A stretch of DNA of 64,000 nucleotides from a virus (lineage: Duplodnaviria; Heunggongvirae; Uroviricota; Caudoviricetes), in the IMG/VR virus record IMGVR_UViG_646311923_000012; one strand, given 5' to 3'. This document shows positions 60,001-64,000 of the stretch, one piece after another; positions within the stretch are counted from its first letter, which is position 1; each line of letters begins with the position of its first letter. The position numbers were made by a program.

Positions 60001-63000
60001 TTCCGGGACTACCCGATCGGCTTCCCGCTGAATGGCGGAATCGGCTTCAGGCTGCTGCAGTTGGTGTGATTGCTCCGGCCTTGCGGTCATCACCTGCTGC
60101 ACAGCGCCCGAATCGGCTTTCAGCGCATACGCTGAATCGGCTTCCGGTGTCGTGCCTGCTGGCTGACCAGGATTGACGGTCTGAACATCCCCTGCCTGGT
60201 TCGTGGCGTTTTTTACGCCATGGACCATAGTGTTTTGATCTTCTTGATCTGTATCTTTATCTGTATCTTTATCTGTATCTTTATCTGTCGTGACTCGTCG
60301 TGACATGTGCGTGACATTTCGTGACGCGCCGTGACAATCGCCATTTTGTTCCCGCTTTCTTTCCCTCTCTCGCTGCGCCCTCTTGCGCTCTGCAGGAGAT
60401 TTTGCGGTTTGCGAAATATTGCCGTTGTCCTCTTTAAGCACCTGGCGTTTTTCCCATCCAGTGATTAAATCACCATCAAGTACCCGCCCCTGCATCGTCT
60501 GCAAAATTGAATCAATTACCTCTTCTGTCACGTCGAGCGCACTTGCCAAATCTTCTGTCGTGACATCAATGTGACCTCGCGTGACATTTCGTGACGCGCT
60601 CACCAGGAGGTGGATATACACTGCCATCACTGTTGCAATTGGCTGCCCTGACACCCTGGCAATTGTTCGCCACTTAGGGTCATTTGGCATGTCATGCCAT
60701 AATCTGAGCCAGGCGTTAGCCATACTCACCTCTTCTGATACCGAATCTTTTTACTCACGAGTTGCCGGAAGCGATTCGATACGGCTATTGTCAGTCAATG
60801 TACTGCCACAGCATTTCCTGCCGGGCCACCACGGTTCATCTGATTGAAACCGGCGATTGCCACTGCGACAAAATCATCAGCGTCTCTCACCAGTCGCTCC
60901 CGCGTCTCCACCAGCTCCCGAAAATAAGCTGAACTGTGGCTGCGCATTCTGGCCACCAGCAAAGGTGGCATTGCCTTTTCGATCGCTGGTAACAACGCCT
61001 GAATTTTTTCAACTGCATCAGGGGTGTCTTTCTCTACCCAGCGGAAAATTTTCTGGGTATTGCGAGCCAGGGCTTCCGGATGGCTGTCGTCATACAGTTC
61101 AGGAAACGTCATACCCAACTCAAAATAAGCCTGGGTTATTCCAGCTGCCGGAACTTTTTCGCCATCAGGACGCGCCCAGGCATTCATCGCCATGCGGATG
61201 TGTTCATGCTTGATTTTCATGAATCCCCCCTTGGTTAGAAGGCGGATTATGATCAGAACCGGGAATGACAACCGTCGGTATGTGTAACTCATATTTGAGC
61301 GCCCCGGCAGTGACTGCCTGAATTAGCAACGCCCATTTCCACGGAACCTCTTCCCCCCACATGCTGACTGTGGTTTTTGACGTTCCTAGAGCTGCGGCTG
61401 TTTTAACAACTCCGCCAAAATAGCCTAATACTTCTGATTTTTTCATGAGTCGCTCCATAAAACTGAACGCCAAAAGTTTAATAATCAAAACCAAAGAAAG
61501 TCAAGAAACAAAACCATCTGTGTTTTAAAATCAAAACATGAGCAAGCAAACAATATCTGAACGCATAACCCAACGTATGCATGCGCTAAACCTGAAAGGC
61601 AAAGACCTTGTCAATGCCACTGGCGCATCAAAAGGCTCCGTAAGTCAATGGATAAACGGTGGAGGAGCGCCGTCCTCGCGTTACATAAGTTCACTGGCAA
61701 AAATATTGAAAGTAAACGAAAATTGGCTTCTTAATGGAGGAGAGTTAAATACAGGTGATTCGCTTGATCTATCTTTACCGCCGATAAAAACGGTTCCGCT
61801 ACTATCACTTCAGCAGGCAGCAAGCTGGAGTGATTATATGAAAAATTCCTCAATAACCTCTTGTGTGCAGCTTGTCGGAGAAATCCCGGCCAATACCTTT
61901 GCAGTTGTTCTAGAGAGTGACAGTATGTCAACATCTGGTGGGGGAGTTTCCATCCCAAATGGTTCAACAGTTTTTGTTGATCCCAATCGAACCGTACAAC
62001 CAGGAAATATTGTCCTTGCCTTACCCAAAGGGACCACAACACCTGTCATTCGTAAACTGGAGATAGAAGGGCCGGATATTCTTTTAGTCCCCACGAATCC
62101 TCGCTACCCTTCAATTATGCTGGATGATCTATCTTGCATATTGGGCGTATGCTTTAAAATTCAACAAGATATTTAACCGACCTCATCTATTTGATTAACT
62201 GTATGCCATCGTGGTGATGGCTTAACAGCTGCCTGCTTAAAATGTTTTGATAAAAAAACATTGACCTGAAAAGTTCATTTTTCTAAACTTCATTCATTCC
62301 CTCTCCCCACCCCACAGAATGCAGGGCAATACTTCGAGTTACCAGGCAGTGGTCAGGGGTTAAGTAGCCAGCCCGAGGCGTAAGAACATGACGGCAGGGT
62401 TCAACTTTAATAACTATGCAGCAGGTTTTTGTTCCGCTACCCCGGCGTTAAGGGGAAATGAGGTCAGCATGGATACTATCGATCTTGGCAACAGCGAATC
62501 TCTGGTATGTGGCGTGTTTCCCAACCAGGACGGTACGTTTACCGCGATGACGTATACCAAAAGTAAAACGTTTAAAACCGAAGCTGGCGCGCATCGCTGG
62601 TTAGCAAGAAACTCCGACTGATGAGGTTGACGATGGAATTTAAAGATTTACCTCCTTCAATCCAGGAGATTGCAGCACACACACTTCGTCATCGTCTGAA
62701 CGAACTTGAATTGGAATCGGTAACGAAAAAAGACACTGATAATATGAACCGCCCCGGTTTTCCTGGAGAGTGTTTTATCTGTGAACTCAGGCTGCCAGAT
62801 CATCGTTTCTGATGGAAGCATAATAAGCTTTTTCTGCTTCTGCCGGAGGGATATGACCCAGCCTTCCCAGCAATCGTCGATTGTTATACCAGTCCACCCA
62901 CGTGAGTGTGGCCAGTTCCACTTCTGCACGGTTTTTCCAGCTCTTACGGTGTATTACCTCCGCTTTGTAAAGACCATTGATGCTCTCCGCCATCGCGTTG

Positions 63001-64000
63001 TCATACGAGTCACCTGTACTCCCTGTTGATGCCAGCAGTTTTGCTTCTTTTAGTCGCTCCGTATAGGCCAGTGATACATACTGAGAACCTTTATCACTGT
63101 GATGGACTGTGCCGGACGGCCGACGGGCCCACAACGCCTGCTCCAGTGCATCCAGCACGAATGTCGTTTCCATAGACGATGAGACTCGCCACCCCACGAT
63201 ACATCCGGCAAACACATCAATGATGAACGCCACATAGACGAAGCCCTGCCATGTGCTGACGTAAGTAAAATCAGCCACCCACAGCTGGTCAGGACGTTCT
63301 GCCACGAACTGACGGTTTACGCGGTCGCCTGCGGAAACGGCTTTCCGGCTGACGGTAGTACGGACCTTTTTACCCCGGAGAACACCGGCAAGTCCCATAA
63401 CCGCCATGAGGCGCGCCACTGTACATCTGGCCACCCTGATACCTTCGCGTAACAACTGGCGCCAGACTTTACGCACACCGTACACCTGATGATTTTCATC
63501 GTATACGCGCTGTATCTCTCTCTTCAGCCAGTCATCGCGCTGAGCACGGGCACTGCGTTTATCAGGATGATGTCGCTGTTGCTGACAGTGGTAATACGTT
63601 GACGGGGCAATATGCAGTTCACTGCATACCGGTCCGACCCCGTACTGCTCACGCAGCTTATCCAGCAGCGGCATTATTTTTTCCAGAGGCGGTCGAACTC
63701 CGCCTTCGCAAAATAAGCGGAAGCCTGGCGAAGGATATCGTTACTGCGGCGCAGTTCACGATTTTCACGTTCCAGCTCTTTCAGACGCTGACGTTCAGCG
63801 GTGGTGAGTCCACCATCACCACTCCCGGTATCCCGCTCATGCTGACGAACCCACACACGCAGAGTCTCTGGTGTACAGCCAATCTTTGGGGCAATGGAAC
63901 AAATTGCCGCCCATTGTGAGTCATATTCGCCCTGACTTTCCAGAACCATACGAACTGCCCGTTGACGGACCTCGGGGGAAAAACGTGTATTTTTAGTCAT

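Follow-up and report, generated by a model that had tools for sequence, protein, structure and literature searches.

IS629 disrupts the second early-left gene of a lambdoid prophage and may lower expression of the genes downstream

The DNA analysed here (the window) is the 64,000 nt stretch of the tailed-phage record IMGVR_UViG_646311923_000012, which carries sequence of two lambdoid prophages, A and B. At its right-hand end lies the early-left region of prophage B. The plus strand of this region presents, in this order, an open reading frame (ORF) for a repressor, a promoter-like site, a gene for a DUF1391 protein, an interrupted ORF and a block of insertion sequence (IS), IS629, which occupies positions 62745 to 64000 on the minus strand. 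The prophage carrying this insertion site is of a lambdoid type typical of the O103:H2/O45:H2 lineage of Escherichia coli strains that produce Shiga toxin (STEC), and in near-identical reference strains it is integrated at serU. Between 47402 and 64000 the window differs from E. coli EL361 by one substitution and one 2-bp indel (99.98% identity), and the corresponding EL361 locus (L001) serves below to describe the sequence on the far side of the element.

IS629 belongs to the IS3 family and transposes by a copy-out/paste-in mechanism. The element in the window had been named IS629 in the initial annotation, and its ORFs, its frameshift signal, the match to the IS3 transposase model and the identity to a deposited IS629 all agree with that name. 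The window holds 1,256 of its 1,310 bp, starting with the right inverted repeat (IRR) end; the full element would reach window-equivalent position 64054. The last triplet of the window is the ATG of orfA, and the end at 64000 thus falls 54 bp before the far IS629 end. The right end, as read in the sequence, begins TGAACCGCCCCGG... at 62745, and the alignment of filled and empty sites places the start of the terminal repeat at this same position, where it had been put from the outset. Comparison of the two inverted repeats, made in EL361, shows that the right one (62745 to 62769, beginning TGAACCGCCCCGG...) shares 13 perfect bases with the left end and matches it imperfectly thereafter. The EL361 element is 1,310 bp long, the length listed for IS629 in ISfinder, and has TG...CA termini with imperfect inverted repeats, its ends being TGAACCGCCCCGG and CCGGGGCGGTTCA.

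The six-frame ORF list contains both genes of the element on the minus strand: orfB (62787 to 63674, 295 aa), encoding the DDE transposase part (NF033516, 312 bits), and orfA (63674 to 64000, 108 aa; NF033516, 45 bits). The ALIL pseudoknot, the programmed -1 frameshift signal that joins orfA and orfB, was recognised on the same strand at 63603 to 63719 (Rfam RF01497, 120.9 bits). The part of the element inside the window is 100% identical to EL361 L001 15346-16601. The identity of the element was judged against the copy deposited as IS629 in phage JLK-2012 (JQ347801); the EL361 copy is 99.6% identical to it over 1,310 bp, and other IS629-family copies in related strains, which are IS1203-like subtypes, are 94-96% identical. 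Possessing orfA, orfB, the -1 frameshift pseudoknot and both inverted repeats, this IS629 copy appears to be complete and is apparently transposition-competent. Compared with the catalogued element (isoforms IS1203 and IS3411, known from enterohaemorrhagic E. coli O157:H7 and from non-O157 STEC), it has the same length, the same TGAACCGCCCCGG... repeats, the same orfA/orfB frameshifting at ALIL and the same 3-bp target duplication. There is no difference of substance; only the insertion site is rare. Residence in a lambdoid prophage is shared with most IS629 copies, 62% of those in O157 genomes lying within prophages (PMC3271280).

Upstream of the element, a candidate for the leftward promoter, of the PL or dicBp type, was found on the plus strand at 62261 to 62289 (TTGACC-17-TAAACT). 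The assignment is a consensus match, with a predicted transcription start at ~62296, and this is the sole plus-strand sigma-70-like match between the repressor gene and IS629. Its -35 element is abutted by an operator-like 19-mer, TGTTTTGATAAAAAAACAT, at 62243 to 62261, which was recognised through its repeat families (direct, D1; inverted pairs, I1/I2), and related copies of the 19-mer stand on the cro side at 61475 to 61493 and 61521 to 61539. The arrangement suggests that the repressor binds at these candidate 19-mers and that the promoter is probably under its control. Counted from the predicted start, IS629 begins 449 nt downstream, farther than the ~360 nt from PL at which it had initially been placed. 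The description of the transposase as antisense to PL holds: orfA and orfB lie on the minus strand, the promoter on the plus strand.

The first early-left gene (62469 to 62621, plus strand) encodes a 50-aa, ydfA-like DUF1391 protein (PF07151, E 1.9e-28), which PGAP also annotates in EL361; a longer form of the ORF starts at 62388. Between the promoter and the IS the ORF list contains only this gene and the interrupted one, orf212. An N-type antiterminator was not found in this interval, and no nut site was identified.

The repressor gene is an uninterrupted plus-strand ORF of 212 aa (61538 to 62176), and its product has an HTH_3 and a Peptidase_S24 domain. The RefSeq annotation, a 'LexA family protein', covers no more than the C-terminal 112 aa (61838 to 62176). 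The S24 motifs with Ser (DSM) and Lys (RK) occur in the protein. An Ala-Gly or Cys-Gly cleavage dipeptide is absent anywhere in its 212-aa sequence. The repressor had been called SOS-cleavable; the S24 domain is indeed present but lacks such a site, and, to judge from the protein sequence, RecA-stimulated self-cleavage is not assured.

The gene hit by the element is the second ORF after the PL-like promoter, as first reported. In IS-free strains it is intact, with 639 nt and 212 aa (WP_023982533; 2011C-4251, L002 15234-15872, and many other strains). In the window, 37 codons and 1 nt of it remain upstream of the element (62633 to 62744, plus strand; phrog_2151, 'Ybl81' in some sources), as delimited with the intact gene of 2011C-4251. 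IS629 splits codon 38, and the resulting fusion ORF stops at 62812 after 38 native and 21 IS-encoded residues. The 212-aa gene is thus destroyed by IS629. The initial annotation had let the interrupted ORF start at 62621. That an ORF runs from there into the IS is correct, but a start at 62633 is more likely: all homologues begin with MEFKDL, which corresponds to 62633, a GAGG lies 6 nt upstream, and PGAP chose the same start. At 62621, the less likely start, the ATG shares nucleotides with the stop codon of ydfA (TGATG).

The function of the lost protein could not be read from its relatives. The homologues of phrog_2151 that were found, all in this phage-gene family, come from Escherichia and Salmonella alone. 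Sequence searches with the 212-aa protein gave no match in Pfam, NCBIfam, PADLOC or PDB, and the PHROGs search returned unknown-function families only. An AlphaFold2 model built with 39 homologues was of middling quality, with a pLDDT of 66 and a pTM of 0.47, and Foldseek found no credible match for it in PDB (best E 0.04, TM 0.24).

Comparison of filled and empty sites allowed the insertion event to be reconstructed. The prophage of strain 2011C-4251 is the same (99.95% identical), but its site is empty and the 639-nt gene there is uninterrupted; UTAK-4 is another sister strain whose copy of this prophage lacks the IS. In EL361 both IS junctions are visible together with a 3-bp duplication, ATA, which occurs as a single copy at the empty site of 2011C-4251. 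The left copy of the target-site duplication occupies 62742 to 62744 of the window and the right copy L001 16656-16658 of EL361. All three things that the initial annotation had expected beyond the window, namely the other IS end, a target duplication (anticipated as 3-4 bp) and the remainder of the gene, are accordingly found at the EL361 locus. The insertion is real, neither a chance resemblance nor a misassembly, and both the identity of the IS and the disruption of the gene are near certain. If the EL361 pattern applies, the sequence beyond 64000 is expected to consist of 54 bp of IS629 ending ...CCCGGGGCGGTTCA, followed by ATATGGCTCGTAATGTGCG..., the rest of the gene; a simple insertion in the source genome should give ATATGGCTCGTAATG... 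past window position 64054.

Among 5,426 complete E. coli genomes, only two have the exact junction, those of EL361 and strain 129 (O103:H2), so the insertion is recent and restricted to a lineage, and it could serve as a marker of the lineage to which these two strains belong. The insertion, ordinary and of a well-known kind, already has an entry in RefSeq, where an IS3-family transposase stands between two pseudogene fragments; our literature search found no paper that mentions an insertion at exactly this site. One copy of IS629 elsewhere is 100% identical to the window element and has the same orientation: it lies in yeeJ, ~8 kb past the prophage end, in 2011C-4251 and UTAK-2 (L002 23621-24930). 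In EL361, yeeJ contains a different IS629 subtype (95.9%) at another position. It is conceivable that the identical yeeJ neighbour was the donor. The IS-excision enhancer (IEE) promotes excision of IS629 and occurs in O103:H2 (PMC9943667), and the insertion is therefore potentially reversible in IEE-positive strains.

A simple insertion is not the only event that could leave an IS629 end at 62745. The element might instead mark a rearrangement breakpoint in the source genome, produced by IS629-IS629 recombination, inversion or deletion, in which case the rest of the gene would not follow beyond 64000. These genomes carry 20-40 IS629-family copies each, and no complete genome in the collection is colinear with the window: positions 18500 to 26500 have their match at another locus of EL361 (2.02 Mb), and the late region is only 98.8% identical to the EL361 serU prophage. 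Against a breakpoint, the 99.98% identity to EL361 extends from 47402 across the junction and over 1,256 bp of the IS, and both genomes that have the junction show a simple insertion with target duplication. We regard the breakpoint as very improbable.

In EL361 the element is followed by the 3' part of the interrupted gene, a convergent 69-aa ORF, the small RNA (sRNA) DicF (L001 17734-17785, 75 bits), dicB (annotated at L001 17966-18154), a DUF1482 (ydfD-like) gene, a 2.5-kb RecE-like exonuclease gene, a gene for a DUF4224 protein that matches excisionase PHROGs (phrog_1266), a tyrosine integrase gene and serU. The exonuclease, the DUF4224 excisionase and the integrase bear out the assignment of recombination, xis and int functions to the downstream genes. 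The nearest downstream cargo, DicF and dicB, had not been foreseen in that assignment. A second copy of the DicF sRNA (75 bits) lies in the window's other prophage, at 16226 to 16277 on the plus strand, so a loss of DicF from the IS-hit prophage would be buffered.

The integrase gene of EL361 (L001 21168-22218) is flagged 'frameshifted' by RefSeq/PGAP, as it is in every strain examined. If the integrase were already dead, excision would be lost regardless of the IS. This idea was rejected: the ORF from 21168 to 22193 is uninterrupted and encodes 341 aa, and 341-aa homologues as remote as 68% identity retain its C-terminal ...PENIPRKYSK. Two RefSeq calls for this prophage, the 'frameshifted' integrase and the shortened 'LexA family protein', look like annotation artefacts, and they are not by themselves grounds for regarding it as defective.

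The layout closely resembles that of the dicBF operon of prophage Qin in E. coli K-12 (dicBp-ydfABC-dicF-dicB-ydfDE). The order is the same, with a repressor-controlled promoter, ydfA, small ORFs, DicF, dicB and a ydfD-like gene. This layout, with ydfA/DUF1391 first and DicF and dicB downstream on the same strand, is found in EL361 and presumably also in the window's genome. There are also clear differences from Qin. Its repressor is DicA, whereas the protein encoded here is a CI/LexA-type repressor with a helix-turn-helix and an S24-peptidase domain; a DicA-type repressor with DicC was not found, the opposite arm having Cro/CI-type and YdaT-type genes. The place of ydfB and ydfC is taken by the 212-aa phrog_2151 gene. 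Furthermore, the operon here runs on to a RecE-like exonuclease gene, followed by xis and an int that seems intact, and the full late region of the prophage is preserved.

In these last features it is like the lambda PL operon (N-...-exo-bet-gam-xis-int), in which a leftward promoter downstream of the repressor gene serves distal recombination, xis and int genes. As in lambda, excision would be expected to need leftward transcription. Unlike in lambda, where the antiterminator gene N comes first, the first gene here is that for DUF1391. Since no N-like gene lies upstream of the IS, suppression of IS polarity by N cannot be assumed either way. The early-left module is a hybrid in which a dicBF operon as in Qin is combined with a recombination/xis/int arm like that of lambda. 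The position of the element also recalls the classic polar insertions of IS1 and IS2 in gal and lac, which likewise lie in a promoter-proximal gene and put a long untranslated stretch before the distal genes. In contrast to those cases, the operon here is normally repressed and any effect would appear only on derepression; polarity is here a prediction from the sequence.

Insertions of IS elements are known to cause Rho-dependent polarity, and Rho prefers RNA of C-rich composition. Leftward transcripts of prophage B would enter IS629 from its right end and read the antisense strand of the transposase. The distance that RNA polymerase would have to cover in untranslated sequence before dicB is 2,552 nt with the IS and 780 nt without it. 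We scored 80-nt windows in which C exceeded G by at least 12 points, a rut-like heuristic; between PL and dicB there were 17 such C-over-G windows, all of them inside the IS, and the IS-free operon had none. Polarity is plausible because the element adds 1.3 kb of untranslated, C-rich RNA. As this RNA would invite Rho-dependent termination, derepression should yield lower expression of DicF, dicB, the ydfD-like gene, the RecE-like exonuclease, the DUF4224 excisionase and the integrase. The consequence would be less excision and less division inhibition mediated by DicF and DicB. Scanning found no consensus plus-strand promoter between the IS and xis; nor did a consensus scan with shuffled-sequence comparison detect outward promoters or intrinsic terminators in IS629 beyond chance level. 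On this evidence we favour, with moderate confidence, a polar effect of IS629 on the distal genes; reduced excision is plausible as well, provided that xis and int rely on the leftward promoter.

Several points weigh against polarity. The case for it is built on a base-composition heuristic and on analogy, and the PL-sense strand of the IS has only a weak terminator-like hairpin (63023 to 63038), terminator-like sites being no commoner than in shuffled sequence. Consensus scanning is blind to activator-dependent promoters, such as an int promoter similar to lambda PI. The IS-free operon already contains a terminator at DicF, in the form of a 3' hairpin, and the untranslated gap of 780 nt; the distal genes may already be weakly expressed from PL, or their expression may require an unrecognised antitermination system, which would override the IS as well. 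The sequence beyond 64000 is extrapolated from the two genomes with the junction, EL361 and strain 129, relative to both of which the window's genome is mosaic. Finally, one older study, cited in PMC10448788, proposed a promoter upstream of dicB.

The same features of the IS-free operon would fit a functionally neutral insertion, by which a single dispensable gene was lost and the genes downstream keep their former expression, or are just as silent with the IS as without it, owing to promoters of their own, read-through or the DicF terminator. A cII-dependent promoter, which escapes consensus scans, is common among lambda-type int genes. Neutrality would also accord with the scatter of IS insertions over the whole prophage family, in which the excess in the early-left region is not significant (5 events versus 2 and 2-3). 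We nevertheless find it somewhat unlikely that the insertion is without effect, since 1.3 kb of untranslated C-rich RNA is a classic substrate of Rho and the scan revealed no consensus promoter between the IS and xis. Qin speaks in the same direction: DicF and DicB are made there from one polycistronic transcript that starts upstream of ydfA, dicBp being the only promoter found (PMC10448788).

Prophage B had initially been suspected of being defective in excision or induction. For induction the suspicion finds no support. The cro, ydaT, O, P and Q arm lies on the other strand and is untouched by the insertion, and no N-type gene is interposed between PL and the IS. Because lytic development is driven from this opposite arm, it should not be blocked by the insertion. 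The late genes had been described as intact, and those in the window are indeed open, including the gene for the 1,158-aa gpJ. This tail-tip gene J (25005 to 28481, minus strand) is annotated as frameshifted in the serU prophage copy of EL361. Taken as a whole, the explanation that IS629 disrupts the gene, lowers expression downstream of it and spares the lytic arm seems likely to us.

IS elements have entered the early-left region of related STEC prophages repeatedly. In UTAK-2 an IS629 subtype, 94.7% identical to the window element and in opposite orientation, is inserted with an ATA duplication (L003 9933-11242; window-equivalent 62329-62331), ~35 nt downstream of the predicted leftward start; this insertion is independent of that in the window. 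O103:H2 strain 129 has, in addition to the same IS629 insertion as the window, an ISCro1 element (IS66 family) that lies in the leader, between the promoter and ydfA, and is flanked by an 8-bp duplication (L004 5975-8673; window-equivalent 62358-62365). ESDR8 carries an IS629-type element just upstream of DicF, four strains have IS600 between DicF and dicB, 95-3192 and OkiPb01680 have IS629-type elements in the exonuclease gene, and OkiPb01680 has ISEc8 in int. At least eight independent early-left events were mapped altogether (L006-L013; IS-free coordinates L002 14900-20400), five of the eight upstream of dicB.

Such a series raises the question of selection. An IS between PL and dicB could have been favoured for uncoupling the toxic DicF and DicB, as well as xis and int, from an inducible promoter, a form of domestication that would lock in and detoxify the prophage. 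Three independent insertions (the IS629 subtype of UTAK-2, the ISCro1 of strain 129 and the IS629 of the window) fall within 415 bp of PL leader and orf212 start, and the events upstream of dicB involve IS629 subtypes, ISCro1 and IS600. Among the 37 genomes whose immunity region is the same, independent events numbered 5 in the early-left 7 kb, 2 in the early-right 7 kb and 2-3 in the Q-lysis 7 kb. The early-left enrichment over these two control segments of equal length was not significant, and the interval had been chosen post hoc. Adding a second immunity group changed the counts to ~10-11 early-left events versus 3, an enrichment that is only suggestive and not robust.

Orientation gave no better argument for selection. 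A preference for the orientation antisense to PL was considered as an effect of transcription and was rejected: eight of nine IS629-family copies across the prophage family lie on the same DNA strand whatever the local direction of transcription, those in the oppositely transcribed arm included, and the bias is therefore one of absolute strand. Moreover, STEC genomes contain several dicF/dicB copies, one of them at 16226 to 16277 in the window itself, and silencing one of them gains little. With the enrichment not significant and the orientation bias reducible to strand, we rate silencing driven by selection as possible but quite unlikely.

Should the polar effect favoured above be true, the insertion would mean lower excision of the prophage and a lower DicF/DicB output from one of several copies. 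Otherwise the finding is a matter of strain-level bookkeeping, one more case of IS629 shaping the prophage content of STEC.

The remainder of the window has a composite history. Colinearity of the whole window with EL361 was considered and rejected, as it fails upstream of ~47400. The first ~22 kb, which belong to another lambdoid prophage ending in exonuclease and integrase genes, and the prophage A/B junction, where the tail genes adjoin, match the 2.02 Mb locus of EL361 (98.3%). Relative to the EL361 serU prophage, the late region shows 98.8% identity and the early region 99.98%. The mosaic, which concerns positions 1 to 26500 and 24934 to 50000 and is seen against every complete genome searched, suggests recombination between resident prophages.

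In the minus-strand gene for a SASA-family esterase (approximately 48630 to 50480), the window has a 2-bp (GG) deletion at 49087 compared with both EL361 and 2011C-4251. The deletion shifts the frame of this 616-aa carbohydrate esterase, encoded downstream of Q, and leaves a longest ORF of 474 aa. Rfam models also identified a sok antitoxin RNA (56107 to 56281, minus strand), which adjoins a hok/gef gene, and two copies of the STnc100 sRNA (1294 to 1466, and 50618 to 50790 on the minus strand). Clusters of tRNA genes occur at 2239 to 2487 and at 51563 to 51812, downstream of the Q region of each prophage.

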